Shown here piece by piece: positions 3,001 to 63,910 of a stretch of DNA of 64,000 bases. The position numbers and the translations under genes were made by a program. Below the pieces are notes generated by a model, which was given only the letters and a program-made list of their open reading frames with translations, was not told where the DNA came from and did not search any database. Where the stretch lies: NCBI GenBank assembly GCA_036172245.1, contig JAYWIR010000074.1, forward strand, positions 1 to 64,000, given 5' to 3'. Positions within the stretch are counted from its first letter, which is position 1. The number at the start of each line of letters is the position of its first letter. Source of the stretch: Raillietiella orientalis (taxonomy: Eukaryota).

Positions 3001-4586
3001 TCCGCCCCCTGTTTTTTGTTTGTCCATCTCCCCAGGAAGTCAAAGTCTAAGCGCAGCGCCTTCTACGCAAAGCGTTGTGGGGCGCTGCAAGATCCCGTGT
3101 TAGACTTAAAGAGTTGGTGGCGCCGCGTCAGGATGCAGGCTTGGGCATCCTCGACTTAAACAGCATCGAACTGCAGGTGCAGTTGCGCATGCTGCGGCTC
3201 TGTGCCAAGCTGTGGTGTATGCCGTGGTGCTTACCCGCACGCCTTATACTGAGGCGCTGCACGGGAAGCGAGGGACTGCTTTCGTTGCTACCCCACTTTC
3301 GGCACACCAGAATAGGGTTTGTCTTCCCGCTCAGGCAGCTGTTTACACTGCTGGAAGCCCAAAGCTGGATCTCCTGCCTCCCCATGAACATGAATGCATG
3401 GCGGCAGGAATCTTTTTCATCGTGGGCAGCTTCCGAAGGAACTCGCCCGGAAGATCTTCGACGCCTGCGACTTCTCCTCAGTCATCAAATGGACGAAGTC
3501 ATGCAGGACAAGAAGTTGTTGGATCGTCTGGCCGCCACACCACTCGCCGCAGCGCAGTCTGCCCTCAGGGCAAGCAAGGACGGTTGCCTACCGGCGGAAT
3601 GGGAGTTCTTCTGCAAAATAGCGGGAGTCAGTAAGCTCCTCGGCAGCTAAACGACAAAGGAGCTGGTGCAAGCCGCCACACCTCGGAATCGGGCCAATTG
3701 CCTGCTTCGGTGGACCGAACATTTAAGTGTGCCCCCCGGAGAGATCGTGGTTCCCCCCGTTTGTTTGGACAGCTCCGTGTTTCCCCTTAAGTGGAAGCAA
3801 GATGTGCTGCTCTTTTTACATTGTGCATTACACTGTAATAGGCAGCGAAGCATCGTTTTAGGGGGAGCTGCTTTGACAAACTGTTTAAGGTGCGGAGAGA
3901 TCGAGTCACTTCCGCACCTTTTGCTGGACTGCGGTGACCTCCGGGAACTGTGGCGAAGGCTCACTTCGGCCATCATGCCACAAGTAGGCACTGCCATTGA
4001 TGTGCTGCGGCGCTTCTTCAGCAAAAATGGACTTTCGGTTGGCGCGATTGTCGCAACCATGTGTTGCGTTCGCGCCATCGTGAAGGCCCGCTACGCCCTG
4101 GAGTTGTCAGCGCAGAGAAGGGATGCTCACCTGCTTGCATCTCAATTCATGGAGAAGGCTTCAAGGTGGTCTCATCTTCGTGACAAGGTGAATGAGGACA
4201 TCACCGGCATACATCGCAGGTATACAGACCTTTGATAACGGCGTAATCCGGTGACCCCTGCGACCTCTTGCCCACCCATACCCCGTCCACGTTCGCTCGG
4301 TAAAATTTCCGGTGCCCATGCTTTTATCCCCGTGTCTTCCAGAGCGATCCCAAAGACCCTTATCCCGTCCTCCTTATTCATTGTTTTTATTTTATTTTGG
4401 TTTCTTTGTGTTCCCCGCCCCCAGACACCGTTCACAAAACTGTTACTCTGGCCTGCGTGCCAGCAATATTCTCTTGATTATTGTTCAGTCGTCGGTTGGG
4501 AGTTTGGTTCCCAACTGGTTTATTTTATAAAATTATTTTTTGGTTATGTTATATGGAATAAACGCTTCGGCGTGACCGCGTGAGAA
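1..4586 (+). mobile_element. Non-LTR retrotransposon family A, copy A1 (ORF1 3' part, decayed ORF2, 3' UTR; 5' end outside window)
   Basis: ORF fragments give NVYAP/AGDFN/SDH (894-1382), KAPGEDG (1521-2162), GIRQG/YADD (2498-2839) and CLRCGEIESLPHLLLDC (3666-4235). It is colinear with 55000-59595 and ends AATAAAcgcttcggcgtgaccgcgtgagaa. Confidence 0.93.
660..4235 (+). pseudogene. A1 ORF2 (APE-RT-CCHC) pseudogene
   Basis: Relative to the near-intact copy at 55666-59239, the start ATG reads ATC and there are several stops and frameshifts. Confidence 0.9.
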
Positions 4587-4598
4587 ATCTCTTGTGCT

Positions 4599-5959
4599 CG
4601 CCCAGTACAGCCGTGTTTTCGCGTCTCTCCGCGTCCGCGATCGAGCATCTTTGTGCGTGCGTTTTCGCTCGCACTTGTGTGTTTCTTGGAAGTGGACGAA
4701 GCAGCGTTGAACAACATGGCCACTTGTATGAATGGTATGGAGGAGACAGCCGTTGAATCCAATTCCATTGGAATGGAAGCGGCAGCATCCTCAATGACGG
4801 TTTCCTCGCCTTCGGTGAGGAGCTACGCCGCCGTCACCCCTTAGGAAGCAGGACCCTGCGATGCGCAGTTGCAGGATTATGTGGCATCCGGCTACATGCC
4901 CGCACTCCGTTATAAGGTCAGTGGGCCCCTTACCGGGAGGATCGGGCGTGAGCTCAACGATGAGCTCGTCCAGATCGGCGTCCGGGAGGATTAGCTCCTC
5001 GCCATCATGCCCGCGGGCAAGATGCAATACCAAAACATACGGTGCAAAAACGCAGCACTTGTGCAGCGTCTTCTCCGTACTTCGTTGACCATCGGTGGCC
5101 AGGAAGTCCTACCTACAGTGATGGACGATTGGTTTGTCGTCCAATTGTGCGACTTCGAGCCGGAGATCTCCGACCGCAATGTCGTAAGTGTGGTTTTGAA
5201 TTTCGCCACCGTGCACGCTCTGTGGAGGAGGCCAAATCCTCTAAAGGATTTTCCCTTTGTCCACATTGAACAAGTTTCCGCGCGGATGACCTTCACGCAC
5301 AGGTGTGTTGTGCCCGAGCAGATGCAGGTGAACTGCACGGTCGTTCATCTGTGGTTTAACGGGCGGACTTGCGCGTGCGAGCAGTGCAGCAAGGAGGGAC
5401 ACCCAATGAAGGAATGTCTCACCCCGAAATGCCGTTATTGCAAAGAAACCGGGCACGAATTAAAAAAGTGCCGGTCCTTGATAAGAAAAGGGCAGCAGTG
5501 GAAGTTCGTAACGTTCAAGAAACCAACGCACGAAAGGCCGCTGCCCCCAAGAAAAAACAGTGTACGCGGAGTCTTGGAAAAAGAGCCGAGCAATACGCGG
5601 CAATACAAAAGGCGTCACCGCCCGCAACGCCCCAAAAGGGAGAAATCGCGGCGGGGAAGCCAATTAAAAAGGGGCGCGAGGGTTCGATGCGTGCTGTGCG
5701 CGCCCTCGCTGCCGTACTGGGAAACACCTCTTCACGCCAGGAACCGGGAAATATCCGAAGAACCTCGGTAGGAAAGGTAGGCGAGCAAAAACATCGGCAT
5801 AGGGCGAAGACTTTCAGTTTCATCCCGCTGTCCCTTCCCAAAACGGCCATCCCCCAATCCAACGTAGGAGTTTCTGCGGAGGCTACGAAACTCGTAGCAA
5901 GCCCCGGCGCGCCGCGCAAAAGCACGCTGCATGCAGCCACCCCTTCACTGACTCGGCAA
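4599..5959 (+). mobile_element. Family A copy A2: 5' UTR and 5' part of ORF1, tandem downstream of A1
   Basis: Starts cgcccagtacagccgtgttttc. ORF1 from ~4716 has stops and knuckles CEQCSKEGHPMKEC and CRYCKETGHELKKC. Homologous to 37286-38052(-) and 54245-55000. Confidence 0.88.
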
Positions 5960-7740
5960 GTTTCCCTAAGTCCCACAAGAGGTGGGGTGAATTTATTCTC
6001 CATTTTTTAAAACACATTCATTCTACAATCACATTCATACTACATACCCACTTAACATCACTCTGGAGTCCTTGGGGATATTACAAGTTCTGCTTTCATG
6101 TTGGGTTTCCAGACGTTTGTTCCCGGGCGTCGTTTTCAATCCTCATCAGGAAGAATCGGTAGGTCCAGGCATGGATGCGACCACAATTCCTGATACCGAT
6201 CTCCTTCTTAATGAGTCCTTGAAAAAGCTCTATCGGAGGTAAGGCTCTCCTGGCTTTCCTCGTCTTCCACCACCGCATAAGTATGGCGGTGTTGGATAGG
6301 GCAATGGTCGTCCTCACCATGGGAATGTAACAGGGAACATTACCATCTTCCTGAAACATCGCGGCGAGGATCTCCATTGTGGAGCTGTTGATGAGTCCAA
6401 TGATCCTTTTCAGAATCAGTCAGTCGTGTAGCAATGTGGGACACGTCAAGACGTGAAGTCTCGTGTCGGTGTCGCCACATGCTGCGCCGTCTTGTTCTTC
6501 CCGTCTTCCTGTGAAGTGCTGAAGTCTTTACTCGCTTCGAATTCCTCCATGATAAAACATTAGTAGGTTGTCGTGAGTGTCCCGGGGAAGATCACTCTTC
6601 CAGAGCGTCGTTCAGATCGCTAACCGGTTGATCCGGTCACTCCCGTAGCTATCGGCGGCTTCTTGGAGGGCACTGATGTCTCGGTCCTCTTCTTTGATGA
6701 GTCTTCAGAGGTTTGATTTGGTAACCCTAGACCACGCGAGGTCGTTGTGGTTGATCTACACCTCGGAGGTCATGTGAGTCAACCTTCCTAACATCATCTG
6801 TATATAGCGAAGTATACGAGTGTGATGTAGGTAGCCTGCTCTTCTCCATCCCTGAATTCGATGCAGGGTAACTTTGGACCGCCGGTAGATCCAGCTTCTT
6901 GTGTCCTAAGAAACCGGAAGCATCCAAGAAATCACCAGGATGAACTCCTCTTGCCAGAGTTTGCTGCTTCGCGGCACGATCTTAATTTTGTGCTTACACA
7001 CCAGCCGTTGCTTCCTCCTCCAGGTTGGGTGGATGGATGTCCACTCTACTGCTCGGCCTAGCAGCGCAGTCTTCAGGCCTTTCGAGCTGCTCAGCAACAA
7101 TTCGTAGGCTTTATGCGCCGCATACGGCCATTCATCCCACTGGGTGGCTATGTCCAGGATGTGTCGCGTGTGTCCATAATTTCCATGGAATGTGTAGGCG
7201 ACTTCATCTCGGAACCGCCTTCTTCCCTGAAACGACACAGGGGTTTCAGACGAACTCTTGGGCGACAGTGGCCTTACAGTGTTTTTCGTTGCAGCTTCTC
7301 TACCTCTCTCGTGGTTTGTTTGTTCATTCTAGCGGAGGCCGCCCCAAAGAGTACCTTAGGAGGGAATACTCCGTTCCACAGGTTGGCCCATGGCTTCATC
7401 CCAAAGTCCAATCGAGTGTATTTTGCTGCTTCATTGGCCGTTTTCCCCAGTTTTTCCGTCCAGAGTTGCTTCGACGCGGAGTCGTCGCCTATGTAGACTC
7501 CCAGGTACTTGGCCGTGTCTACCGTACGGAATGCACTCCCTGTGAGGGCAGAGATATCCAGTATTCCGATGGGCAAAAGCTGGCTCTTGTGGGCATTGAT
7601 CTTCAAGCCCAGTCCATCTTTCATAAGGCTCACCACATCCAGGAACGTTTGTTGATACCTCTCTCCTGTTATGAAGAAGAGAAGATCGTCCGCGTAGGCT
7701 AGATAGGTGAGCTTCTAGTCGTCTACATTCACTTTGTTTA
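5960..7740 (-). mobile_element. Divergent 5'-truncated decayed LINE (family G), RT C-terminal half to 3' end
   Basis: The minus strand reads YLAYADDLL near 7690 and GLKINAHKSQ..AKYLGVYI (7274-7636). The 3' end has AATAAA then cccac-ctctt-gtggg. It is less GC-rich and unlike A-F. Confidence 0.8.
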
Positions 7741-9536
7741 AACGTTTGTTCTTCTCGACGAAGGAAAAGAGCGCCTTAGCGAGCATTTCCTGACTGCCGC
7801 GGAGGCTGGCTTTCGCCGCCTTTCAAGGGTGCAGCGAAAGCTGCGCCCCTGGCGGCTGGAGACGAAAGCCCGGAGACGTTCCTGAGGAACATTTCGGAAC
7901 GCACCGAGGAAACAGGAGGAGTGTGGACGGTTGTGGAAAAAGGGAGGAAGGTAATATCTCCCAAAAATCCTCCACAACCTCCATCCAAGAGCCTTTGCTA
8001 GGCACGGAACACTGGCGCGCTAAAGAAAATTTGCGCAAAGGTTCCCTCTGCCATTGCAAATGATACCGCCGCTACCGCTTATAGCGAGAAATTTGCGATC
8101 ACCGGTAGCGATGCCACGGTGACCGCGAAGAAGGAAGTGTCCGCGGTCTCATCCGTGAGTACTTCCGAATCGACACGGCAGGATAGACGCGAAGCGCCGG
8201 CTCTTCAATTGGACTCGGAAACGGAGTCTGATATCAATGCCGCACGTCGCATCACCCGCAAGGCAGCCGTAGCGTGCCGGGCTAAGGCCCTGAGGCGCTC
8301 AGCGCAGGCAGCGAAGGAGCGAGAGCTCACCTCGGACCGTCAGACGAAGCTACCCGGAGACGAGCACTCGAATTCGTGCAGCATCAGGGAGGACAGTGGC
8401 GACCGTGAGCTCCAGCCAGCAGTTCTGCTTACCAACCGCTCGCCGGTAAAAGCGGGCAAAAAGATGCCAACTTCCCAGCATTAATGCGGCAAAAAGCTTC
8501 TCGTCGCCTGTCCGTCGCGTGTTGGAACGTGAACGGACTACAGAACGACGAGAAGAGGCGATTGGTAGCCAACGCCCTGCGCTCCTTTGACCTCGCGCTC
8601 CTGCAGGATATACACGTAATTTCCGACGAGCAGGCTGCGGAAGTCAAGGATCGTGCAGGAGGAAAGTTACTTTGGCGGTGTAAAGACGCGCGTACGTGCG
8701 GCGTCGCGTTTCTCGTAAGAGGAAAAATTGCGGAAGCGGTGCGTAGTGTACGCTACGAAGACGACGTACGGGTGGGCCAGCTTGTTATCAAGTGGTCCGA
8801 GTCCATCGATCTCGTCGTGATGAACATTAGCTCGCCTAGTGGCTCGCGCTACCTCGAAGATAGAATTGCGCTATTCGAGGATGTGAAATGCCACTGGCTC
8901 AACAACTCTGGCTCCCAACTGGCGCACCTCGTCGCAGGCGACTTCAACGTCCACCTGCTCTCCGACGAATGGAGCTGCCCGAGGGAGCGAACGTCGGCCA
9001 TCGAAATGTGCACGTCAGTACGCACTCTCAATTTGATGGTCGGCGTGCCTGAGATGGAAAGGTCACCGGATCACATCTTCCTCGATGACAACCTGCACCC
9101 TCGTGTGGGAAGAAGAGGAAGATTGTCGTCCGCACTTCCTGATCATAACAGGTTGGATTTCGAGCCCCTTCCGCCAGGCAAGGGGTCTCCGCTGAAAAAC
9201 TGGAGGATGTCCGCGGACTGGCTTAGCCATCCGGAGGCGGCGGAGCATCTCCGTGAGTACCTCCGGACCTTTGTCATCCGCGAACTCGCGGACTGGGATC
9301 ATTTAAAAAGATCAGTCCGCGAGTTCTGCGAACGGTTTCTCTTGCACCGGCTCCCGCGAGGCTTTGGAGAAGGGGTCGCCAACAGCAGGACTTTCCTGCA
9401 GGCGCGCACCTTTTTCACACGTGCTGATGTCAGCCGGCTTGCGGAATACAAGGCGAGAGCCGAGTGCCAGGTCTGGCAGTCTGGAGCATCTTGCTTGCTC
9501 GACAAAAACGGCCTGAAGTGCTCGACTCCAGCCGGT
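7741..9536 (+). mobile_element. B-like element fragment (B'): ORF1 C-terminus plus ORF2 endonuclease and linker
   Basis: TAATG overlap at 8482-8486. ORF 8484 reads WNVNGLQNDEKRR..AGDFN, close to ORF 24642. It is cut at KCSTPAG by the 3' end of F1. Confidence 0.85.
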
Positions 9537-12373
9537 ATATATATATCACCCGGATTTGTCTGGGCATTTATTATACAAATTTTTATGTAATAAAAATTTC
9601 AAAATAAAGTCTTTGAAATTATTCTAAAACTCTTTGAGCAGAACAAGTGGTTCCGCCTGGCTGGACACACTTCCCGCTGCAAATTCACAGGTTGCAGAGA
9701 TCCTGCCCGGATGCGAAGGGGGAGGGAAACCTACAAACAAGAACAGAAAAAAGAAACATCAAAACCAAGGGGAGGGCAATGTTTTTTAGGAGGGAAGGGC
9801 TGGCATGGGATCACTGGTAGCTTCAAGAGGTACTCAGCATCCTGTTCAGGATACGGAGATGTGCCGGACGTAATGATATTAGCCGAGACCATCGGGAAGC
9901 CTTGTGAATGTTTAGGGCCGTCCATTGGATGGCGTTTCGGCTGTTATGACGTCTGTAGGACGCAGCCCATTTGGCCAGGCTTCCGCGTATGCAGCAGAGG
10001 ACTGCTACACACGCAGTTGCTGGCAGGGCGTCCTGCATGAAGACGCGACAGAAAGTGTCTTTGGGTCGCCCCCGGGAATGTTCAAAATCGTCGACAATCG
10101 ATCCCACATGGGTCGAAGGGCGACACACTCAATGATGAGGTGAAGGACGGTATCTCGTTCATCACACACTGCACAATTCGCAACCACAATTCCGGAAGTG
10201 CAATGGAAGAGGCGTGCTTTGCATAGGAGTCCCCAATGCAACACCAGCAGCGCCGTCACTTGCCATTCCAAGGAGAATGTGCAAGAATCCCAGCACACTG
10301 GGGGCCACTTCACCTTTTCCGGAGGTATGCCGAGTAGCTTGCCCCAGCGCACAATTCCTTTAGACGTGAAGGTCAGGGTTGCAGCGTCCCATAACTCCCG
10401 AGTCGTAGACGCCTTTAATGGTTTTCTCCTGCCTCGGATGAGGCAGGACACTTCCCACAATGCTCGTTCGTTGCCGTTCCCGATGTTCAAAAGGGAGGAC
10501 AGCACGGGAGCAAGGGGGTCAATGAAGCCCACAGCAGTTTCCGCGGATTGTTGATTATCTCCTTCAGGGGCTGTAGAGCGCTCGGTCCTCGACGGGGACA
10601 GTGGTACTCCGCTTCGCTCGTGCCATTGATCTGGGCCCAAGCGTAAACTGACTCCTGAAGCCAGGCAGTGCACTTCGCGGGGCGGCAGGAGATCCAGGAA
10701 TTCTCCCTCATCAGGACGACCATCTGGAGCAGATGAAAGCCAAAGCTGTAATTGAGGCTGCGCGCGTACGCAATGAGGATCGAGGACAATCCGTCGCAGC
10801 CGGTCGCTCTTCTGGCGAGGAGCCGTGCGGGTTCACACCATGATGTCAACCATAAGCTAGCCGCAAAAGATAGCTCCCTAAAGTTTATGTGTTTTTGTAT
10901 GCGCTCCATCGTCAAGAGGCTCAAAGCACCGTCCCTGCGTGGAGCACACAAGTCTATTAATCGGAATCGTGACCTCGCTGTTCCCCAAAGGGCAGTTCTG
11001 AGGAGGGCCTTGGTCCGTCTCTTTATAATTGGCGGTGCGGGGCCCACAAAAAGTAACGGACGAAGGAGGGGGGCCGCGAAAGCGTTCCACACCGCTGCCT
11101 GTTCCTGCAAGTCAAACTTGCCGTTTCGGAAGGGTCCGATCGCCAGCTCTACCTTATGAAGACGGTCGGAACAGGCATCTGCAACGCAGAAGTCCCCCAA
11201 CGGAATGCCAAGGTACTTCAGGCACCTGCCCGTGGGGATCCCCAAGCGGATCCAGTCCGGCCGTCCAGCTCACGCCGTATTTCTTGAAAGAAGTGGTGAT
11301 TTTGCCACAATTGTGGATTTCTCTCTGTTCACCCGGAGGCCCGTCCCTCGGCGCAGCAGCTTGAAGAAATCTTCTAGCGCCTCCGCTGGGGTGGACCCGG
11401 GGAGCAGGAGCAGAAGATCATCGGCATAGGCCGACACGGCAGGCGTGCCGGGACACAAGCTCAGCAGGGTTGCCAGAGTCATCCTGTATGCCCTCAGCAC
11501 CAACTGGGAGTAGATGCTGAAGAGCAAGGGGCTCAGACTGTCACCCTGCCTTATGCCTCGACGAACCGGAACGCCGTACACATGTCGGCCGCTAAAAGCG
11601 ATGTTTATGATTGCGAAGCGCCAGCAGGAGCGCAGGTAAGACCGGAAGACTGCCGGGGATCCCAAACGTTCCAGGACTTCCAGGAGTTCCTGGTCGACGC
11701 AGTCGAATGCTATACGCAGATCGACTGCGACCGCAAGTGCTCCTGGCGCGGCTCTTCCATGAAGGGCGTCCCCTCCCTGGTCAGAGGAGAATCCAGGATT
11801 CTCTTGACCTCCCTGCGCTTCGCTTTGTAGCAACTGCCACCATGTACTGGCGAGGAACAGGTTGGGCTCCATGGATCGTTCTGGAACAGCGTAAGTCTGC
11901 TCCAGACTCACCACGGATTCCGCCACCCGTCCCAGTCGCTCAGCCCAATGTTTGGCCAGCGACTTTGCATCCGCATTCACTATGGTGATATGAGGCCAGT
12001 TGTCTACGTTGCGGGTGTCTCCTTGTTTAGGAAGAAAACGTACTTTGGCTGACCGGAACGACATGGGAACGTCCCCTTGTTCTCGGATCAGCGTGCATAG
12101 TTAGTGCACCAGGGGTACCAGCTACGCTGCGAAGAGTTGGTAAAACTCCGCGGGCAGGCCGTCTTCCCCTGCTGCCTTGCGTTTTTTCTGTTTTTCAATG
12201 GCAGAAATAATCTCCGCCATTGAGAAAGGCTCCTGTATTCGTTCTCGATCCTCCTGCTTCAATGCATGGGCGTCCTGCGGCAGCAATCGCTGCGCAAAGG
12301 CGCGCTCTGTGGTTCGCAGCGCGTAAAAAGCGAAGTAGAAATTCCGCAAGATGCGGCAAACCTGCGCCGGTGC
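9537..12373 (-). mobile_element. Family F copy F1: RT, C-terminus and 3' UTR
   Basis: ORFs 12122-12349, 11270-12064 (GIRQGDSLSPLLF, YADD), 10487-11245 and 10005-10673 (CAVCDERDTVLHLIIEC). The 3' end is AATAAAtgcccagacaaatccgggtga(ta)n. Confidence 0.88.
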
Positions 12374-14972
12374 CGCACGCGTTTTTGGTCAGCTCCCGTG
12401 AGCGAAGCCAAAACTAGGTGTTATGTGGATTGGAAGTGCGGCCGTTGGAAGCCAGAAATGACTGAAGAAGCCGCAGTACCTGCGACGGGAGACATGAGGC
12501 CCACGTCTCCACAACCTATGGAGGTGGGGTCATGCCCCACCACAAAATCAGCCCCCGCCACCCCGGCGAGGGCGTGGAACAAGGTGGCCGCGGCGGCTCC
12601 GCCGGACGTGGCCGCCAAAGTGCAGGCCTACATAAAGGAGGGCTACAACCCAGCCCTCCTTTACAAGGTAGGAAATCTTTATCCACCGCTTACAACGCGG
12701 AAATCTGAAAACGCCATCAGTAGGATGGGAATCTCTGACGAGGAGATCCTTTGCTTCTCGATTCGGAGCGGCGGGCAGTTCGCGGAGCTGATCTGCAAAG
12801 ATGCAGCGCTCACACACAAACTGCTCTGCACGCCCGTTCCGTTCGAAGGGCGCAATCTCCTCCCACACACGGTGAATCACTCTATGGTGATCCACCTCAC
12901 GGGTACAACGGTGCCGATGACCGATGAAGCCATCCGCACTGGAATCAACAAATTCGCGGAGATATACGCGATGTGGTCAAAGCCCAACGCCTTTACTTAT
13001 CGAGGCGCATTCAGTGGGCGAGTGGCCGCGCGCGCAACTCTCCGCGAAAACAAAGAACTTCCCCACAAGCTTGAAGTCAACAACGAGCTCGTCGACCTCT
13101 GGTACGTAAGGAAGGAAAAATACTGTGGGCTGTGCAACACATTCAGGCATCTTAAAAGGAGATGCCCGGATGCCACATGCCCAAACTGCGGCGCGAAGGG
13201 CAACACTAGTGCTGTGTGCCCGAAAAACGACGAGACAACGCCTTCAGCCCCTTCGACAAATGAGGGGAAGAAGGCAGTAAACCAAAAAACACGCGACCAA
13301 CAACCGACCTAAGAAGAAGTCGTGCACAAGGAGCAGGAGCCTCAAAAGGAGAATTCTGAGCCAACTGCCGACGAGGAAAACTGGAAAGTCGTTTCGAACA
13401 AAAAAGCAAAAGAAACACACACAAAAAAAACAAAAATACCTACAAAAAATGACAAATATCAGAACGCAAGCGTTCCCAAAAAACCCGCGGTCGGCAAACC
13501 AAAAATTTCGCCGCGCGAGTCCATAAACGAATGCCGCGTTACAATCGAGCGCGTTCCGTCGATCGAGCGTCGATCGGCGAACGCGACTCCCGCAACCGTC
13601 GCGAACGCCGCGGAACCGCCGCAGGAATCCTGCGACAAACACGCGAGCAGCAGCAACGAGAAAAACTTCGCGAAGGCGGCGGAGAAACTCGCGGCCACCT
13701 TAATGCGGCCGCCTAAGGCTGCAAAGAAGGCCGTCAGACGTCCGACGGAAGTTAAGGGCCCGGAAACTTCCGGGTCCGAGGCGGAAGCCAGAAACCCTCC
13801 CACCGTCGCCCTTCCGAAGAGGAAGGCGGGCCGGAAGTCGTGCAACCCCATCCGCGTCGCTCCCCCTCAGGCTGAAGAGGAGGAGATGCGCTCGCATAGC
13901 GAGGAGGCGATGTCCGCGAGGTCGAAGGATCCCTCCATCGACAGCATCCGGTCGGACCTTCCTATAAACCTCAGTCCGGCTGCAGACGTTCCGGTCGTTG
14001 CCGAAACGCCACCACCGCAGATGGACAACGACCTGCCGCCTCCCGAACAGGAGGCGGCAATACACACGCCACCACCATCACTAGTATGATGCGTGGAATC
14101 GCCTCTTGCCGGCAGCTGCGTATAGCCTGTTGGAATGTCAACGGGCTGCGTAGCGAAAGCAAGAGGCGTAGCGTGGCCGACACCCAGCGACCTTTCAATC
14201 TGGCACTACTTCAAGAGGTGCATGCCCTCAGAGCAGAGGACGTCCAGGAAATCGAGAGTCTACAAGGGGGAACGCTACTTTGGCGTGGTGGAGGAGACCA
14301 CTCCCGCGGAGTGGCCTTCCTGCTGAAGCAAACCGTCGCCAATGCGGTACGCAGTGCACAGTTCGACGAGGACGGTCGAGTCGGACAACTTGTGCTTAAG
14401 TGGTCCGAATCGATCAACCTCGTAGTCACGAACCTGTACACGCCCTGCACCAGCCACAGGCGCGCAGAACGCACTGCGTTCTTCGAAGCCCTGCGGCTAG
14501 ACTGGCTGGCTGAAGCAGGCGTGCGGCGGGCGCATCTGATAGCAGGAGACTTCAAAGTCCGCCTGCTGTCGAAAGCGCCCGACATACGAGTGCAATTGGT
14601 CAACGAGTTGTGTGCGGCTATGAACACACGCAACTTGTTGGCCGATGGAGCCGGGGCTAGAAGCGGAATCCACCAAGAGTTCCTCGATAACCACATGTGT
14701 ACGCGGGTGGGGACTCGAGGAGCAATTGCGTCGGAGCTGTCCGATCACCCTCGGCTAGTGATCGACATTCATCCGCGCCACAGAGGTCCACCCTCCGAAG
14801 CGTTGCGCCTGCCGGGGAACTGGTTGCGACTTGCAGGAGCGCGCGAACATCTGCGCGCATTCCTGCGTAGTTACGAACTGCAAACTCTCGCTGATTGGGA
14901 CAAAATAAAACGCTAATTCCGAGAGTACTGTGACCAGTATCCCCTCCATCAACTTCCTCCAGGTTTCGGCGA
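12374..14972 (+). mobile_element. Family F copy F2: 5' UTR, ORF1 and endonuclease
   Basis: ORF1 ~12458-14089 has one internal TAA (13310) and knuckles CGLCNTFRHLKRRC / CPNCGAKGNTSAVC. TGATG overlap at 14087-14091; EN ORF 14086-14916. Confidence 0.9.
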
Positions 14973-16617
14973 TGCCACCCGGATATGCCAGGACGTTTAT
15001 TAAAAACATTTCGACGGTCAATACAGAACGTGGAACAAAGTCCCACTGAAGGTAACGCAATACCGGAACTGCTGGGACACCGGGACGCAGCCCGGTGTGG
15101 CTATCCTCGGCAGCGGTGGGGCATGAAAGAGAAAACAAAAATAAAATAAAAGAGAAAAACAAACCACAAAAAAAAGTATGGAGGGCCGGGAAGGGATCAC
15201 AGAAAACTACTAGGAGCGCGCATCCTTTGCAGGATGCCTTCTAGTTCCATTTTCAGCTTTCCTAAATGGAGCCATTGGGTAGCTCTCTGCAGGAAGCGCG
15301 AAGCATACTCGATGACGTTCCTCACGATGCAGTCTTCATCTTCGGCATCACTCCAGGCCGCCACGATACCACGAATGCAGCAACATGCTGCCTGGGCTGC
15401 GGCTGGACTGAGAGCGTTCCGCACGAAGACAAGACTGAAGATACATTCAACATTGCCACCAAATCCGGTATCCGGAGGGCCGTTTTCAGACGATCCCAAA
15501 GAATCCGGACGGCAGGGCATTCAACTAAGAGGTGGGGGAGCGACTCCCGCTCCCCACACCTGGCACACGCAGGATTTACTCTTCCCCGCGTCCAGTGCAA
15601 GCGGCGCGCGTTGCAGGGTAGACTCCAATGCAGCCACAGAAGCGCCGATTCTTGCCACTTCAAGGGGAGAATCCTGGATCCAAGAAGAACCGGGGGCCAC
15701 TTCAGGTCATCCAATCGAATGCCGAGCAGCTCGCCCCATCTTCTTGATCCACGCGGCTGGAGACTAGGGGTCGTTGCATCTGTCAACTCTCCCATGGTCC
15801 AGCCGCTGATCATCTTCTCTCTGCCTGCGATACGGCAGCAGACTTGCCACCTTGGCTTCCGGCTTCCGTGAAGCGCCCTTTGGAGGAAGGGCATCGCCGT
15901 AACAAGGGGTGTGCCTTCCGCCCACGTGCAACTCGGTGGAAATTCAAGAATTTCACGGAGAGTGCGGCGGGCGTATAAGCCGACTAGCAGGCAGTTCATC
16001 CGGTCTTCGCACCTTTGGTTCTGCTTAGCCCAGGTGCCAGCAGTCTCTTCCAGCCAAGCGGAGGAGTTGGCAGGGCCACAAACCATCCGGTCGTTTTCCT
16101 TTGCCAGGGTTGCCATGCGGCCGAGCATTAGACCGCATCTTCGAATCTTCCGGCGAGGGCACAGAAGAAACGATGCGAGTCCTTCGCAGCGGGACACACG
16201 TCTGGCCAGGAGGGGGGCCGGAATGTACCAAGCAGTGCTCCACATCTTCGCTGCGATGGCGAGGGTCCACCATCGCAGCTGGATTTCCACGCGCTCCAGC
16301 GTCAGGATGCTGAGACAGCCGTCCCGACGCGCAGCGCACAAGTCCTTCAAAGGGACTCGGGGCCTCCCCTTGCCTCAAAGAGCTATGCGGAGGAGGTTTT
16401 TAGTCCCCTTTTTTGATTCCACGGGGGGGATCAAACAAGAAGCAAGGGGCGGAGGATGTGGGCCGCGAAGGCGTTCCAAACCGCGGCCCGTTCCGGGAAG
16501 TGAAACTTGCCTTCCAGGAACGGGCCGATCGCCGTCTCGACTTTTTGGAGGCAGCTGGACCACGCTTCCGCAGGCGAGAAGTCCCCCAACGGCACACCGA
16601 GGTACTTGATGCACCTC
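14973..16617 (-). mobile_element. Family D copy D1: ORF2 C-terminus and 3' UTR
   Basis: ORF 15322-16350 ends with CARCGERESLPHLLVEC. The 3' end is AATAAAcgtcctggcatatccgggtggca. Near-identical to 45623-47270(+). Confidence 0.88.
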
Positions 16618-22632: not shown

Positions 22633-22640
22633 ATTTCAAT

Positions 22641-26346: not shown

Positions 26347-26746
26347 CAAGGCGTTCGATTTTCACCCGGATTTCTCCGAGTCGTTTATTAAAAAAATAAA
26401 CTTTGTAAACAAATTATTAATGGCTGTGGCAATGCTCCAGCCAGAAGCTAAGAACCACGACGCCTGCGAATTCACCGGTTTCTAGACCGGTACTGTCCAC
26501 CAAGGCAGCAGGGGAAAAAGGAAAAACAAAAAAAAAAAAAAAAACTGAACAAACAAAAAAAAAAAAAAAAAAAGGGTGGGAGGGAAGGGGAAGGGATGCC
26601 GCTGCCCCCTGTCCATCCCTGGTGGTCGCGTCAGGCATCCCTGCCTGATCGACCACCGAACCAAACGACGCTTGCACTTAAGGAGACTTCCTGGCACGAG
26701 GAGCACCGAGAAAACACGTCCACCCTGGAGCACGCAAGGCGTTCGA
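26347..26746. repeat. 12-bp target-site duplication CAAGGCGTTCGA (26347-26358 / 26735-26746)
   Basis: Exact direct repeat. Removing the insert restores DLHKAFECVNEKLL. Confidence 0.93.
26359..26734 (-). mobile_element. 376-bp internally deleted family-E element (5' UTR plus ORF1 start fused to 3' UTR)
   Basis: 26598-26734 matches the E1/E2 5' ends and 26359-26597 matches the E2 3' UTR (50540-50763). It is flanked by a perfect repeat caaggcgttcga. Confidence 0.92.
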
Positions 26747-29248: not shown

Positions 29249-32200
29249 ACGCTCCCGAATCTCCATTGAAACCCCGGTGAGCCGGGACGTTTATTCTCAC
29301 GAATAAACCTATACAATCTGTGACTGGACCAGTAGTCCAGCCACGCCTTGGAAAGATATAGCTTGCCGGGCTACCGGTGCGCAGTCCGGCGCGGGCGAGC
29401 TCGGCAGCAGAGGGGAGGGGGAACGTAACAAAAAGAAAACTAAAAATAAATAAAAATCTGGGAGGGAGCGGGAAGGGATCACAGTCTGCTGGGAGGGTCC
29501 GTCATCCTCTGTAGGATGCCGGAAGCTGTTTCTGCTTGTGTGGTCCCAGATGGGGCCATCAAGTCGCCATTCTGAGAAAACGAGCGGCATACACGTTGGC
29601 ATCCCTGTCTCTGGATCCTTCCGTCGCTTTGCTCCATGCCACGACGATCGCGCGTAGGCAGCACAGGGCTGCAAGCGAGGCCGCTGGAGGCAGGGCGTCA
29701 CGGACGAAGAGGGAGCGCAAAGCGTCTCTGGGGTTGTCTCCGGGCATCCCCAGGGCTGCGGCAAAGCGTTCCCATAAGGGACGGAGGGCAACACAATCCA
29801 CTAAAAGGTGGGGGAGGGATTCACTCTCTCCGCACCTGACACAGTTAGGGTTTACACCCTCCCGCGTCCAGTGGTGTCGGCGGGCGTTGCAAGGAAGCCC
29901 CCAATTCAACACCAGAAGTGCCGACTGTTGCCACTTCATGGGTAGGGTTCGCGAGTCCATGAGCAACGGGGGCCAATCGAGATGTTCCTCTGGAACATGC
30001 AGTAGCTCTTCCCAGCGCAACAGTCCATTTGGGGTGGTCCTCGGGGTCGCAGCGTTGGTGAGCTGACATGTTCTCCAATCCCAGATCTTCTTTGCCCTGC
30101 TCTCGATCTTGACAGTAACCTCCCATTGTGCCGCGACGTCGCTGCCCAGATGTTCCCGTAGGGTGAGCAGTACCGCAGCAAGGGAATGTCTTTGTGCCCA
30201 CGCTCTCCTTCGGGGATTCTCGATGATTTCTCGGAGCGTGCGGCGGGCATGCGGCCCGAACAGAGCTATTCGATCGTGTTGCGGGCTCTGCTCCTGAATC
30301 ATCGCCTACCTGCGGACGGTTTCCTGCAACCAGGCAGCACCGTTCGCGGAGCGTAGGAGGACCAGAACCGAGTTGTTCTTCACGAGCTTGGCCGCCCTCC
30401 GAAGTTGAAGTCCGCATTGGCAGATGGGGCTTCGGAGTGCAAAGTAGGACGAGAGTCCCGCATTGCCGGTGGCTTGCTCGACGAGGAGACGTGCAGGGAG
30501 GCACCAAGGGGTGCACCAATTTTCTGCCATAAAGGCAAGTCGGAACTGGATCTGTAGCTCCAGCCGCTCCAACGTCAGGAGGCCCAGGCCACCATCCCGA
30601 CGAGGAGCGCACAAGTCCGAAAGACGGACGCGGGGCCTCCCTCTGCCCCTAAGGGCGATCCTCTGGAGGTCCTTCGTCCTCTTCTTTGACTCCGCTGAGG
30701 GAGGGCAAACAAAAAGAAAGGGGCGAAGGAGGGGGGCCGCAGACGCGTTCCACGCCGCGGCATGTTCCTGCAGGTAGAACCTGCCGTCCTGGAAAGGGCC
30801 GATCGTCGCCTGAGCCTTCTGAAGGCAGCCGGACCACGCTTCCGCAGGGGAGTAGTCCCCCAACGGCACACCAAGGTACTTGAAGTAGCTCAGCGTGGGT
30901 ATCCCCAAACGGACCCGCTCCTGCTGCCCTGCCCACGCCGCTCCAACTGGCATTACGGACGACTTCGCCCTGTTCACCGACAGTCCTGTTCCACGACTCA
31001 GCAGGTCGAAGAAGTCCTCGACCGCCGAGGCTGGGGAGGACATGGGCAGCAGCAGCAGAAGATGGTCCGCGTACGCCAAAACCGCAGGCGTACCGGGGCA
31101 ATCGCACGGCAGGTGCGCAAGAGTCTCCCTGTACGCTCTCAGCACCAATTCGAAAGAGGCGCTAAAGATCTGGGGGCTCAGGCTGTCTCCCTGCCGTATG
31201 CCGCGTCGCACCGGTACTCCGTGCACGGCTTGCCCGCTAAAAAGAACATTAATGAGCGCGTCGCGCAAACTGGAGCGCAGGTAGGCCAGCAAAGAGGCCG
31301 GGAAGCCCAAGCATTCCAGAAGAACGAAAAGGAGATTCTTGTCGACGCAGTCGAATGCTTTATGCGAATCGACTGCGACCGCGAGGGCTCCTCTCCCCTT
31401 TCGACCATCCCGTCCCCCACCGACGGACGCACAGGAATTCCGGTTGCTTATTATGCTCCTTCCTTGTTGGAGCTCTAACCATGTGGAAGCGTAAAACAGG
31501 TTCGCCTCCATACTTCGCCCAGGAACAGCATATGTCTGTTAAGAGCTGATGAAGATGTTGGCGACCCGTCCCAGGCGCTCTGCCCACAGCTTGGCTGGCA
31601 ACTTGGCGTCCGCATTCACTATTTTGATGGGACGCCAGTTTTTTATGCTCCTAAGGTCTCCTCCCTTCGGGAGGAGCTGCACCATTGCTGAATGAAACGA
31701 GGTGGGAACGTCACCTGTTTCACGGATCAGCAAGGTGAGCTGATGTACCAGGGGAGTAAGCTCAGCCGCGAAAGTTTGATAAAACTCCGCGGGCAGGCCG
31801 TCCTCCCCTGGAGCCTTCCGCCTCTTGAGCTTTCCGATGGCCGAGAGGATCTCGCCCATTTTGAAAGGCTCGTCGAGGCTTCTTTTCTCCTCCTCCTTGA
31901 TCGCTGGAGCACCTTCCGGAAGCAAAAGTCGTAAGACGTCTCGCTCCGGAGGCGCCCTGGCGTACAGGGAGGAGTAAAATTTCCTCACTATCCCGCGTTT
32001 CTGAGCAAGAACCGAGTACTCCCGGCCCTGGTCGTCCAGAAAGCTGGCCGACCCGGATTGCCAGGCTTGCCTCTCGGCTGGCGCTCGATACTCTGCTAAC
32101 CTGCGCATGTCGGGGGTTCTCGCGTAACGTCGGGCCTCAAGATAGCACCTTTCGTTACGCGGCCCCTCCCCAAATCCCGCAGGTAGGCGATACAGGGGGA

Positions 32201-34798
32201 ACTGGTCGCAGAACTCCTGGACCGACCGCTTGAAGCGGTCCTAGTCCAGAAGTGTCTGCATCCTGAAACTCCGAATACACGCGTGGAGGTGCTCCGCCGC
32301 GTCGGGAAACTTCAGCCAGTGCCCTGGCAGACGCCACGTTGACGAGGGGGTGCCCTTGTCGTGCGGACGCAGTTCGAACATGATCCGACCATGGTTCGGC
32401 AGCTCGGATGGTACCTTGCCGCGCCTGCCCAATCGAGAGCATAGGTGCTGATCAAGGTACATGTGATCGATGCTGCTTTCCATGTCCGTGTCCCCGGCCA
32501 ACAAGTTGCGCGTGTTCATTTCTGCGCACAACTCGTTGACGCGGTCCTTCAGTGTATCCGGCGCACCTGAAAGCAGGCGCAGGTTGAAATCACCTGCGAT
32601 CAGGTGCGCTTTGCGAACTCCTGCATCGGTCAGCCAATCGCTTCTCAGGGCAAGGTAGAATTCCCTTCTTGCCTTCGCCCTCAACGCGTTGTTTCCGCTA
32701 GGAGCGTATAGGTTGGTGACGACCAGGTCGATAGAGTCGGACCAGCTGAGAGTCAGCTGACCGACGCCACCTTCGTCATCGAACCGAACGTCCTTTATTG
32801 CGGTTCCGATGGCTGGCCGAAGCAGGAAGGAGACACCGCTTGCTTTCGCGGTGCCGCAACGCCACAACAGCCGCCCACACGAGATGCGTTCGATCTCCCG
32901 GGCTTGATCTGCGGAGATCACGTGGATCTCCTGCAGCAGCACCAGGTCGAAGGATGCCAGAGTGGCGGGCACGTCACGCCTCTTGCCGTCGTAGCTTAGC
33001 CCGTTTACGTTCCAACAGGCGATCAGAAGACGACGGCGAGATGCGATTCCCGGCATTATGGCTGGGAAAGTGGCGTCGCGACACCTGCCGCGGGGCAGGT
33101 GTAGGAGAGGTCCATCGGTACGAGGACGGAGGCCTCTTCAGGCGCCTGGGGTACCTTTTCGGCCTCCATCCTCACCATTCCCTCCGTGTCCGAGTGTGGA
33201 ATTCTCTCGGGCGACGGGTCCCGGGAGTTTCCCACGCTCATGGCACCCTCGCTACCGGAAGCCATCTCTTCCCCTTCGTTGGGTGAGACGATCTTCCGGG
33301 GCATTGTGGACTTTCGTCCTGCCTTTTTGCGGGGTGCTGCGGAGATGGATGCTGTGTTTCCGGACATCACCTCGGGGTCGGAAGTGGGCGACTCCTGAGG
33401 GGAAGCCGGACGCCTGACAGCCTTCTTGCCAGACTTGGGGGCAACCGGTTGCAGCGAGGCAGCCAGCTCCTTCGCGGCGCGCTCGAAGGCGACGTCATCG
33501 AGCGTGGGCTCGATGACGGATGCCGCCGCCTCGCTACCCTCCTTGTTGACTTTGTCAACGGAGGGTTGAGCAGGGGCAGCAGCGAGTTCTTTAGCGCCGC
33601 ATTCGTCGATGGCGGGAATCCGCTCTACATCGACGCAGCAGCTAGTAATTTTTTCGCGGCGCAGTGCGGTTTCGCACCGTCTCGCCACGTTCTTTCCCTT
33701 CTTATGGGAGTTTTTCTTGGGGTCGAACTTCTGCCATCCTGGCTCTTGAGCCTCGCCCTCGAACTTTTCGGCGGTTTTCGCCGGGGTCTCGGGGCTGGCC
33801 TTCGCCTTGTTGGCGGAGGTAACCTCCTTAGCAGCAGCACGAGCAGTCAGCTTTTTCCTCTTGTTAGCCGCGCGCGTTCTCGCGTTTTTCGCGAACACGA
33901 CGCGGACTGTGTTTTGGGGGCACACCAGACGGGTGTGCCCCGCTTGTATGCATTGGTGGCACTCCACGCTCGGACCATTCATTTCAAGGTGACCGTAGCT
34001 GCTGCAGCAGCCGCAATACTTGGGTTTCCCCACGTACCACACGTCAACGGATTCACCGTTGACGGTGGGTTTGTGGGAAAACTCACATCCCACGCGAACC
34101 GTCACTCGCGCTGCACTCAGGCCGCCAAGCACCCCGTCGTAATCGACAAAAGGAGTAGGCTTTCCCTACAGCGCATAAACAGTTGCAAATTTTTCTAATT
34201 CGTTCCGGACGACCTCCTTCGTCATCCGGAACGTGATACCGGTCAGGTGAATGATCACCATCCGGTCTTCAGTAATGGAGAGAAGCCTCCGGCTGCCCAT
34301 AATTACGGGGGTTCGCAGAAGTCTCTGCGCAAGAGTTGCCTCCTTGCAGATAACCTCCACAAATTGACCCCCGCTTCTGACGGACATAGCCAGAAGCTCC
34401 TCTTTCTGTACGCCGAGAACGCGCATCGCCTGTGAGAAGGCGCGCGCGTTCTCGGGAGAATATAGACCGCCTACCTTATATAGAAGGGGTGGGTTATACC
34501 CCTCCTCCAGGTAAGCGTGCATTTTCGCCATAGCCGCTGGCGTAGGTGCCGCAGCCACGGCGTTCCAAGCCCTGGGTAGGGCCGGGGGCGCATCTTTGCT
34601 GGCGGGAGCCTCCACTGATGCGGGAGCTCCCACCTCCATCTGCTCCGGGGGCAATGAGGTCATCGCCCCCGGATCCTCACCGGTGGTGGTATCAGGCATT
34701 TCTGCCTAATCCTCCACCCACACCACGCACAAGCACCAACGGAAATGGAACTCAGGAGCAACGAAAAGACACGTCCGCTCGACGCTCCGGAATCTCCA
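29249..34798. repeat. 17-bp target-site duplication ACGCTCC(C/G)GAATCTCCA (29249-29265 / 34782-34798)
   Basis: Direct repeat with one mismatch bracketing C1. Confidence 0.92.
29266..34781 (-). mobile_element. Family C copy C1, full-length (~5.5 kb) with 17-bp TSD
   Basis: 5' end cgagcggacgtgtctttt. ORF1 34699-33056 has one stop; TAATG overlap; ORF2 33056-29479 has stops. The 3' end is AATAAAcgtcccggctcaccgggg. Confidence 0.94.
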
Positions 34799-41684: not shown

Positions 41685-44323
41685 TGGAGATTCCGGAGCG
41701 TGACGCCTCTCAGGTATTCGCGAAGGTGTTCCTAAGCACCTGAGAGTCGCGTCCAGTCCCCCAAAAGACGCCAATCCCTGGATGGCGGTCCTTTGTCGCG
41801 AAACCGCATCTCGAAAATTAACCGTGAATGGTCCGACAACGTCGACGCAACCCTCCTTTGCTTGCCGACCCGTGAACACAGGTCAGCGTCGAGGAAGGCG
41901 TGGTCGATGCTGCGGACCATTCCCCTCTCACCCGCGAACAAGTTGCGCGCACGCATGGAGGCGCACATCTCGTTCATCGCGTTCTCTTGTGTTTCTGGAT
42001 CACCTGTTAGCAGACGGCGATTGAAATCTACCGCTATCAGGTGAGCCTTCCGCACGTTCGTGTCCGCCAGCCAGTCGCTCTTCAGGGATTCCAGCAGACT
42101 GGTACGGTCGCTGTATGCCTGTTTACCGCTGGGGGAGTATACATTCGTGACGATCAGTTCGATCGAGTCGCAGCAGTTCAGAATCAGCTGACCGACCCGA
42201 CCGTCGTCATCGAAGCGCACGTCCTTCACGGCAGCGTCGATGGCCGGCTTCACGAAGAACGCGACCCCGCAGGTGTTGCGGAGGCCGCTCCGCCAATACA
42301 ACCGACCCCCCGCGATCGTCTCGATCTCCTGGCCGTCTGCCGCGTTGATCACGTAGATCTCCTGCAGCAGGGCCAGGTCGAGCTCACGCAGGCTGTCGGC
42401 CGTATATCGCCTGTTACCGTCGTCACGCAGCCCGTTGACGTTCCAACAGGCGGCGCGAATCCGACGGCGACTGGCGAGCCCAGGTGTTACTCCTGGGAAG
42501 ATGGCGATGCGGCGTCAGCCACCTGTTGGGGCGGAACGCTAGGTGGAGGAGTAGGGTCAGGCGCTGCGTGCACCTGGTCCCTTTCCTCCATGGGTAACGG
42601 CGCGTCGAGCGGGTCACCCTCAGGTGGGGTGGAGCCTACCCGTTGGCCCTCCTCCATGGGGGCGGGTTGTTCAGGCTCGGCGACTGCACGGAGGACTTCG
42701 CCCCCCTGCTCATCCTCCTCCATTGGGGTGGCCGTCTCCACGACTTCCGAGCATGGGAGTTCCCCCTCCGGGATTCCCACGCTACCGGTAGCTTCCTGCT
42801 TCTCCTCCTCGCTAGTGGAGGAAAGGCGCCTCCTGGGTTTCTCGGACTTGCGTCCCGACTCCCTGGGGGGTGCCTCCGAGGAGAAGAATGCACTTCCGGC
42901 CCCCAGGTCCTACTCACCCGTGGGGGCCTTTTTCGCGGGTGCCGGCCTTCGCACGGCCTTGCGTAAGGGGTTTTCACGCTCCGCCAGCCTGGCCGCGAGC
43001 TCCTCCGCCGCCTTTGCGAACGCGGCGTCCTCGGTGTCGACCGGCGCATCGCGCGGCTCACCATCTGTTTGCACAGAGGGTTCGCCGTCGCGAACTTCGG
43101 GCGCGACGGAAACGGCGAGGGGAGGCTCGTCGCCCCGGGTCTCATCTTCCGGAACGACGATACGTTTCATTGCCACCGTTCACTCGCGTACGGTTTTCGA
43201 ACGCGGCCCGATTTTTTTGCCTTACTGGCCGGCTTCTCTTTCTTCTCCTTTAAAGGAGATTTTTTCTCTTTTCTGGCTGCTACAAGTTACCAGCCCTCTT
43301 CACCTTCCCCCTCTTGGGAAGGTTTATCCTCCGTCTTTTCTTTTGGAGGTTGAGGATCTGGCAGCTTCAGCCGGCCAGCGTCCGTCTTTGGTCTTGTGTC
43401 CTTTAGTGCGTGTTTCCCCTGCGCCTTTTTCGCGGCAGGAGGAAACAAGGTAGGGGGTTTTGGGCACACCCGTCGAACGTGGCCCTTCTCCCCGCACATG
43501 TGGCATTGGATGTTAGGACACCTCTTGCGAAGGTGTCCTACGTTATCGCAGTAGCCACAATACCGGGGCTTTCCCACGTACCAGAGGTCCACGCTCTCTT
43601 GCGCGACCTCCAGCTTGTGGGGAAGCCCACATTCCTTACTCACGGTTACCCGCGCTGCAGCCTGGCCTCCGAAATGGCTATTAAAGCCTTCAAGATTGCT
43701 GGTTTAGGCCACAGCGCGTGCACCTCCCCGAACTTCCGTAGTTCTTGTGCTACCGCAGAGCGAGTCAAACGGCTCGTTATTCCAGTGAGATGGACTACCA
43801 CGGAGCGGTCCATCGTCACCGGCAAGATCTTGCGGCCGTCGACGTTCAACGGGTTGGTGATAAGAGTCTGAGCCAAGGTGATCTCCGTGCACACCACCTC
43901 GACTCGCTGACCTCCGCTGAGAACAAACAAACCGTCAAGATCTTGTTCTCTTACTCCGGCGTTTTGCAGCGCTTACGAAAACGCGCGTGCCGTTTTTCCA
44001 TCAAATAAGGGGTTTTCCTGGTATACCAAGCTGGGCTTGTACCAAGCTGCCCGATAGGCCGCCATCTCTGCCACGGTTTCCGCGATCGGCGCGGCCACCA
44101 TGGCGCTCCAGCTCCTCGCCTCGGGCGGCGAGGGCGATTCCAAGGCGGACGCCCTGATTCTGTAGGCTGTGGGGGAGGGCAAGCCTCCCTCACACCTACC
44201 TCCATCGTGGTGTCCTCAGGCATCGCTGCCATCGGACTGCAACGATGTTCCACAGCAAACAACTCAAGAAAAAACCGCTTCCTGTCGACTCACTCGGGAG
44301 CGAAGGAGAAACACGTCCACTCG
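41685..44323 (-). mobile_element. Family D copy D3: 5' UTR, ORF1 and endonuclease
   Basis: 5' end cgagtggacgtgtttc. Broken ORF1 44223-42487 has CGYCDNVGHLRKRC / CHMCGEKGHVRRVC; EN 41732-42352. Confidence 0.88.
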
Positions 44324-58600: not shown

Positions 58601-59239
58601 GAATGGGAGTTCTCCTGCAAAATAGCGGGAGTCAGTAAGCTCCTCGGCAGCTGGACGACAAAGGAGCTGGTGCAAGCCGCCACACCTCGGAATCGGGCGA
58701 AGGGACTGCTTCGGTGGAGCGAACATTTAAGTGTGCCCCCCGGAGAGATAGTGGTTCCCCCCGTTTGTTTGGACAGCTCCGTGTTCCCCCTTAAGTGGAA
58801 ACAAGATGTGCTCCTCTTTTTACATTGTGCATTTCACTGTAATAGGCAGCGTAGCATCGTTTCCGGGGGAGCTGCTTTGCCAAACTGTTTAAGGTGCGGA
58901 GAGATCGAGTCTTTTCCGCACCTTTTGTTGGACTGCGGTGACCTCCGGGAACTGTGGCGAAGGCTCACTTCGGCCATCATGCCACAAGGAGGCACTGCCA
59001 TTGATGTGCTGCGGCGCTTCTTCAGCAGAAATGGACTTTCGGTTGGCGCGATTGTCGCAACCATGTGTTGCGTTCGCGCCATCGTGAAGGCCCGCTACGC
59101 CCTGGAGTTGTCATCGCAGCGAAGGGAGGCTCACCTGCTTGCAGCTCACTTCATGGAGAAGGCTTCAAGGTGGTCTCATCTTCGTGACAAGGTGAATGAG
59201 GACATCACCGGCATACATCGCCGGTTTACACCCCTTTGA
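55666..59239 (+). CDS. ORF2 polyprotein of A4 (APE endonuclease, reverse transcriptase, CCHC), ~1190 aa after correcting one +1 frameshift
   Basis: ORFs 55663-58107 and 57776-59239 join across a T7 run (58015-58021) that is T6 in A1. All RT motifs are present; the EN motif reads GDFT instead of GDFN. Confidence 0.9.
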
Positions 59240-59565
59240 GAACGGCGTAATCCGGTGACCCCTGCGACCTCTCGCCCACCCATACCCCGTCCCCGTTCGC
59301 TCGGTAAAATTTCCGGTGCCCATGCTTTTATCCCCGTGTCTTCCAGAGCGATCCCAAAGACCCTTATCCCGTCCTCCTTATTCATTGTTTTTATTTTATT
59401 TTGGTTTCTTTGTGTTTCCCGCCCCCCCACACCGTTCACAAAACTGTTACTCTGGCCTGCGTGCCAGCAATATTCTCTTCATTCTTGTTCAGTCGTCGGT
59501 TAGAGTTTGGTTCCCAACTGGTTTATTTTGTATAATTGCTTTTTTTTTTTGGTTATGTTATATGG

Positions 59566-63905: not shown

Positions 63906-63910
63906 TTTGC

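Follow-up and report, generated by a model that had tools for sequence, protein, structure and literature searches.

R1, R2, TRAS and SART are long interspersed nuclear elements (LINEs) that use one exact nick site, with precise 3' junctions and frequent full-length copies, and their targets are multicopy genes of the host or telomeric repeats. Tx1L of Xenopus, a LINE of the L1/Tx1 group with an apurinic-type endonuclease (APE), is directed to a specific sequence within a DNA transposon. Here we describe a LINE superfamily that fills the first 64,000 nucleotides of contig JAYWIR010000074.1 of Raillietiella orientalis (assembly GCA_036172245.1; this whole 64-kb stretch is called the window below), and whose lineages probably target the antisense strand of the second open reading frame (ORF2) of their own superfamily. 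In the parts of the literature covered here, the L1-type LINEs Zepp of Coccomyxa and Chlorella and ZeppL of Chlamydomonas are described as confined to nested clusters at putative centromeres, 5'-truncated 3' ends with poly(A) standing in tandem arrays in the case of Zepp (PMC8226300; PMC3747384, Table 3), and the Tx1L-type LINE is credited with "target-specific insertion" (PMC3747384). How new copies of the Zepp type find the old ones is left open in these parts, Blanc 2012 offering only "hotspots". Within the same coverage of work on Zepp and related LINEs, to which the original Zepp papers (PMC1169995, PMC169880) do not belong, we found no description of exact self-target positions in ORF2.

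The locus resembles each of these systems in part. Zepp and ZeppL have a gag-like ORF1 and a reverse transcriptase (RT) reading frame and occur almost only in nested clusters; the copies here have a putatively gag-like ORF1 and an RT reading frame, and the window is likewise self-nested, a likeness of behaviour that concerns the window only. Unlike those of Zepp, the insertions are antisense and mostly full length and have tails of 0–12 bases; poly(A) tails and head-to-tail arrays of truncated 3' ends of the Zepp type were not found, and only the series of copies I-J-O' runs head to tail. The target lies within another mobile element, as for Tx1L, but it is the coding sequence of the LINE itself, and there are several lineages with a private site each. 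The exact nick site, the precise 3' junctions, the frequent full-length copies and the lineage-specific targets recall R1, R2, TRAS and SART, whereas the insertions here go into ORF2 of the superfamily itself, on its antisense strand.

All counts, junctions and trees given below come from this one window. As a ruler we used the ORF1 and ORF2 proteins of the near-intact copy R, run as tblastn queries against the window, and codon numbers are amino acid positions of R ORF2. About 22 fragments of the one endonuclease/reverse-transcriptase LINE superfamily tile all 64 kb, besides a single foreign LINE piece, and judging by fragment lengths there is no room for hidden insertions. We could map 25 element ends, namely 12 3' termini and 13 5' ends, 11 of the latter full length and two truncated. 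Twenty-one of the 25 adjoin ORF2 of another copy at five sites, all 21 are antisense to their host, and exactly two 3' termini fall at each site. Site A (codons 62–66) holds the 3' termini of E1 and R and the 5' ends of B', M and the truncated R; site B (codons 277–280) the 3' termini of K and N and the 5' end of K; site C (codons 302–309) the 3' termini of G3' and H and the 5' ends of O and U; site D (codons 359–364) the 3' termini of F1 and F4 and the 5' ends of F2 and F3; and site E (codons 579–584) the 3' termini of T1 and P and the 5' ends of T1, Q and G5'. The four exceptional ends are those of the head-to-tail series I-J-O'. Insertion at the same nucleotide by independent events, as expected of site-specific elements, is seen in E1 and B', which share one duplication, in T1 and P+Q, whose hosts are unrelated, and in F2 and F3, whose hosts are 74% identical. 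Coordinates are collected in Table 1.

Table 1. Elements, tails, reading frames and host pieces of the window (codons refer to R ORF2).
Feature	Position	Strand	Description
E1 tail and orphan duplication	4583..4600	+	4-base tail of E1 and orphan 14-bp site-A duplication; all that separates E1 3' end and B' 5' end; E1 terminus, tail, duplication and B' 5' end together span 4576-4608
B' (host, alpha lineage)	4601..9536	+	full-length 5' end to ORF2 codon 364, cut at site D; tblastn ORF1 and ORF2 aa (amino acids) 8-364; Exo_endo_phos
F1 tail	9537..9546	-	ten bases of alternating A/T
F1 (delta)	9547..12373	-	ORF2 codon 359 to 3' terminus; tblastn aa 359-802 and C-terminal part; RVT_1; terminal heptamer 9547-9553
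F2 (delta)	12374..14975	+	full-length 5' end, ORF1, ORF2 to codon ~309; Exo_endo_phos; cut at site C by G3' 3' end
G3'	14976..16427	-	gamma-type 3' part, 97% to H 3' end; at site C of F2; fused in register to epsilon-type G5' (16428-20430)
T1 (epsilon)	26359..26734	-	internally deleted, 372 bp and 4-base tail; in J at site E; 12/12-bp duplication 26347-26358, 26735-26746
K (beta)	29266..34781	-	full length with tail; at site B of O'/L; duplication 29249-29265, 34782-34798, 16/17 bases
O (gamma)	41685..44323	-	5' end to codon 280; 5' end at site C of H (from 44324)
F3	47268..49869	-	near-identical to F2 (98.7-99%); 5' end in F4, at site D; H 3' end cuts it at site C
F4a	49870..50539	+	F4 codon 359 to site E; 14-bp duplication copy 50526-50539
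P+Q (epsilon)	50540..61571	-	full length; at site E of F4; duplication 13/14 bases
R	54227-59595	+	5'-truncated; at site A of P+Q; 48-bp duplication 54179-54226, 59596-59643, 47/48 bases
R ORF1	54170-55666	+	weak zinc knuckle
R ORF2	55633-58107	+	824 aa
R C-terminal part	57752-59239	+	frameshifted
F4b	61572..63715	+	remainder of F4, site E (duplication copy 61572-61585) to 3' terminus
F4 tail	63716..63719	+	short A tail, 4-5 A (63716-63719/20)
S (host)	63720..63916	-	ORF2 codons ~300-364; tblastn R ORF2 aa 305-364

The sites are divided among lineages. Nucleotide trees were built from two RT segments, the endonuclease region and ORF1, and five lineages appear in them with local support of 0.90–1.0: alpha (E1, R, B' and M, with J and I as sister) at site A, beta (K and N) at site B, gamma (H, L and O) at site C, delta (F1 and F4; F2 and F3) at site D, and epsilon (P/Q and G5', together with T1 by the similarity of its ends) at site E. 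The 5' and 3' trees are linked by full-length copies for alpha, beta and epsilon and by O'/L for gamma. For delta, F1 and F4 form a clade in the two RT trees (support 0.90 and 0.97), and F2 and F3 presumably represent its 5' part, as the sole remaining 5' lineage that lacks a 3' partner. The match of lineage to site is one-to-one, the ends of each lineage lying at a single site, while hosts cross lineages: delta sits in the alpha-type B' and S and in the delta copies F1 and F4, epsilon in J and F4, and gamma in delta, in gamma and in S.

The delta lineage, labelled family F in the initial annotation, was the starting point. That annotation had proposed that F targets the antisense of SAPAQV codons, including those of its own family, and its observations are confirmed and its interpretation is supported. 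The plus-strand reading frame of B' stops at 9536 after CSTPAG and is followed by the tail and the terminus of F1, whose 3' end is thus antisense in B' at site D; the 20-mer next to the F4 3' end (63720–63739) is the antisense of CSAPAQV in the minus-strand piece S, which is bounded by F4 at site D and by the 5' end of U (from ~63917) near site C. The 5' ends of F2 and F3 adjoin two 14-mers (12360–12373 and 49870–49883) that are exact reverse complements of each other and correspond to codons 359–364 of F1 on the minus and F4 on the plus strand, so that F1's own site D is occupied by F2. All four delta ends in the window, two 3' and two full-length 5', hence adjoin the antisense of the same codons, and two of the four hosts (B', S, F1 and F4) are themselves F copies. 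The tblastn matches end accordingly, B' and S stopping at amino acid 364 and F1 and F4 beginning at 359; with R ORF2 as the query, 4/13 copies that reach this region break at amino acid 359/364 and 9/13 read through, a coincidence beyond chance. F ends were found nowhere else in the window, and the 5' and 3' halves do not fall into different families, F1 and F4 being a clade and F2 and F3 being joined to them by elimination and not by overlapping sequence.

Two of the original statements stand in part. Recognition had been called degenerate yet positionally exact; the position is exact, but the degeneracy is less than claimed, as a five-base string next to the nick is identical in S, F1 and F4 (63720–63724 and 12360–12364, read as the complement, and 49879–49883) and that of B' (9532–9536) differs from it at one base. 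This string occurs in 0/9 unoccupied copies, although two of them, L and H, match B' at four bases. A short (TA)n tail had been assigned to F1 alone, which holds for the TA type and fails for tails in general, F4 having a short A tail. Nor is targeting of a site peculiar to F, for the four other lineages behave alike at four other ORF2 sites. The target duplication of F, predicted in that annotation at about 14–16 bp, would be about 14 bp, as estimated from the overlap of the left host pieces (through the second base of codon 364) with the right ones (from codon 360). A nest in which B'+F4, F1+F3 and F2+H are each one element was considered and rejected: the presumed duplications mismatch, and in B'/F4 the 5' flank belongs to another site than the 3' flank.

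We propose, with a probability of roughly 70%, that each lineage inserts at a single precise antisense site in ORF2 by target-primed reverse transcription that is directed by sequence and specific to the lineage. For F, the sense strand of the host ORF2 would be nicked within codon 364, right after the five-base string of the used hosts; the freed 3' end would serve as primer for cDNA synthesis, starting at the F RNA's conserved 3' terminus; the second strand would be cut about 14 bases away; and the new copy would come to lie antisense in the host ORF2, usually full length and with a short flanking duplication. The four sister lineages would act alike at four other positions of ORF2, which would build up the 64-kb nest. 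F would land in F too because the preferred string is present in its own ORF2. Target-primed reverse transcription accords with the anatomy, since the 3' junction is precise, the duplication short and the 5' junction more variable (14 versus 48 bp at site A; U about 15 bases off at site C); the order of the two nicks is inferred. The specificity is probably provided by the endonuclease of each lineage. This source is favoured because the endonuclease region is the most diverged between lineages (46–49% identity to R, against 54–67% in the RT) and because the sites share no nick motif. The one sequence signal that suggests specific nicking is the string common to S, F1 and F4, one base off in B' and absent from the unused copies.

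A number of points weigh against this proposal. It rests on a single window. We found no common nick motif across the five sites, so that endonuclease specificity is assumed; sites A and E are moreover alike in used and in several unused copies. No F insertion in the window has both flanks of one host, and neither B' with F4 nor F1 with S are halves of one element, their 14-mers matching at 11/14 positions. Metagenome contigs scanned with protein patterns from the RT alignment and a DNA pattern of the 3' end yielded no relatives; the 18 matches to the DNA pattern had no tblastn match to three LINE proteins and look like chance. Some of the junctions may also be copies of one another. When the identity of the inserts was compared with that of the hosts for pairs of junctions at one site, the 3' junctions of site C (insert 97%, host 99%) and of site B (92%, 91%) appeared as possibly one event that was copied, and the 3' junctions of site D, F1/F4 in B'/S, were ambiguous (61%, 63%) and could be one old event copied.

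This bears on a reading which we regard as very unlikely, in which there is no site preference and the same junctions recur because segmental duplication, inverted or in tandem, together with gene conversion multiplied a small number of random nested insertions. The window does contain mirror blocks, 12374–16427 against 45817–49869 (96–99%) and 28920–32917 against 38040–42030 (92–94%), for which inverted duplication, gene conversion or a composite that retrotransposed as a whole are possible origins; the pairs K/N, G3'/H and F1/F4 stand in mirror order, the chimeric copy G is fused in register at ~16427, and insert and host identities are equal in the three pairs just named. Each mirror block spans a junction between two elements, and one edge of the first coincides exactly with the 5' ends of F2 and F3. 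Duplication does not explain the discordance of insert and host at the 5' junctions of site D (F2/F3, 98.7% versus 74%) and at the 3' junctions of site E (T1/P, 79% versus 66%), both of which score as independent, although the former pair is not certainly so because F2 and F3 are 98.7% identical and lie in a mirror block. Nor does it account for two elements sharing one 14-bp duplication (4583–4600) or for the same nick with 14 and 48 bp, both of which likewise score as independent events, for the use of one site in hosts of more than one lineage (B'/S versus F1/F4; J versus F4) or for the uniform antisense orientation of 21 ends. Judged from these comparisons, the number of independent events is estimated at 8–12 overall and 2–4 for delta; under a uniform null, 8–12 events falling in at most five 20-base bins and all antisense have P from 2e-7 to 3e-15.

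If site-directed insertion is accepted, the specificity could come from the RNA instead of the endonuclease, which is the main alternative to our proposal but which we consider unlikely. The host flank of a read-through transcript would pair with the same site elsewhere, the endonuclease would not be very specific, and a lineage would stay at the site of its master copy; homing guided by a co-transcribed flank has been proposed for R1-type elements. The perfect match of lineage and site is as expected from such pairing, and so are the hardly differing used and unused A and E sites, the differences between hosts at several duplicated bases, which pairing could tolerate, and the tails, which are identical within alpha (E1/R, 4 bases), epsilon (T1/P, 4 bases) and beta (K/N, 6–7 bases) though the hosts differ. 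The tails of F1 and F4, however, differ from each other, no copy shows a transduced flank exceeding the duplication, and a nick at an exact base would still be required. We retain nicking by lineage-specific endonucleases as the preferred reading.

That the junctions are false products of a collapsed or chimeric repeat assembly is extremely improbable. The region is wholly repetitive, and sequencing run X1, which contains 42% of the sampled words, covers only short pieces of it with short contigs, mostly 90–95% alike; yet the junctions have matching duplications, tails and complete termini, and one short-read contig of X1, a run that possibly stems from the source sample itself, shows the R/Q junction together with the variants peculiar to R. 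A joint of 4586 to 18555 in X1 was discarded as an additional site-A event, for it proved to be the R/Q junction of the window itself, matched to paralogues.

The elements show the features of APE-type non-LTR retrotransposons (LTR, long terminal repeat): an RT, an apurinic-type endonuclease, target-site duplications and no terminal repeats. In the Pfam search of six-frame open reading frames, RVT_1, Exo_endo_phos and a weak zf-RVT occur on both strands. RVT_1 exceeds its cut-off in R (E=1e-20), G (3e-19) and F1 (1e-15), and Exo_endo_phos in B' (34.2 bits) and F2 (27.5 bits), while none was reported on R ORF2 at E<=0.01. For the marks of the L1/Tx1 group, a C-terminal zinc-binding motif behind the RT and a zinc knuckle in a gag-like ORF1, the matches to zf-RVT (20.6 bits against a cut-off of 27.5, one copy) and zf-CCHC (19.5 against 20.8, R ORF1) are weak. 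The closest database protein is an unnamed one of 619 aa with 64% identity; the remaining matches reach at most 31%, and only 25 proteins were found at E<=1e-3. The Protein Atlas and a cluster look-up gave nothing more specific than generic LINE families, and Rfam gave zero family matches in the window. G+C content is 51–61% along the whole 64 kb. Most copies bear stops or frameshifts, and R ORF2 has one frameshift. The foreign LINE fragment (~5960–7800, minus strand, within ORF1 of B') belongs to a different family, with lower G+C and a truncated 5' end; it is a single copy in the window, its RVT_1 match (E=5.6e-6, 26.6 bits) is below the cut-off, and it lies at none of the five sites.

Alignment of the 12 3' ends shows a conserved terminal heptamer about 19 bases after a near-invariant hexamer, five of whose six bases are invariant. 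This hexamer, within the last ~26 bases of the 3' ends (e.g., 59566–59591), resembles a polyadenylation signal and varies in P. In most of the 12 termini a putative 5-bp hairpin can be placed directly ahead of the last two bases; no compensatory changes were found in its stem among the 12 3' ends, only wobble changes or mismatches. The full-length 5' ends have a common recognisable start, and their predominance (11/13) is unusual for LINEs. Duplications at both flanks are observed for four insertions, all of lineages other than delta, and measure 12, 14, 17 and 48 bp; at site A, the 5'-truncated R has 48 bp and full-length insertions have 14 bp at the same nick. E1 and B' are, on the evidence of their single shared 14-bp duplication, two insertions at one nick. 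T1 (26363–26734) has complete 5' and 3' ends and no coding region; as a non-autonomous derivative it may have been mobilised in trans.

G (14976–20430) is contiguous yet chimeric, as its last 1.45 kb is 93–97% like H and the rest groups with P; with the 3' end at site C and the 5' end at site E, it suggests that copies have recombined. The 3' end of N (41677, with the tail at 41678–41684) sits in site B of O. A beta-type ORF1 fragment (36570–37260, 91.5% to K, inverted) is bordered by the broken end of L and by M's broken ORF1, neither border being an element terminus; it is probably what a deletion spared of N, namely its 5' part. Both I and J have their 3' termini followed by the identical 12 bases (22629–22640 and 28919–28930) and then, head to tail, by the 5' end of J and the 5'-truncated O', respectively; the string is a possible sixth target, this one in sense orientation at the element's own tail, and would yield tandem arrays of the Zepp kind. 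A part of it recurs as the tail of K and N.

The persistence of antisense nesting may be due to inverted repeats undergoing inversion rather than deletion, and the mirror blocks would fit this. On a wider view, which we offer tentatively and hold at somewhat less than even odds, at least five co-resident LINE lineages would form a guild that partitions the shared antisense strand of ORF2 into private sites, each lineage with its own endonuclease specificity and some targeting themselves. On this view, sequence-directed self-targeting rather than any recognition of centromeric chromatin would make LINE-only domains such as the algal centromere clusters grow, antisense insertion being favoured as inverted nesting avoids direct-repeat deletion. 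Self-nesting LINE clusters mark the centromeres of several green algae, and the window gives a concrete answer for one such cluster to how it comes to be self-nested: exact nick positions in the elements' own ORF2, one per lineage and always antisense, which would explain how LINE-only clusters build themselves. It also provides endonucleases that are closely related and apparently differ in their targets, a natural set useful for studying the evolution of LINE specificity.

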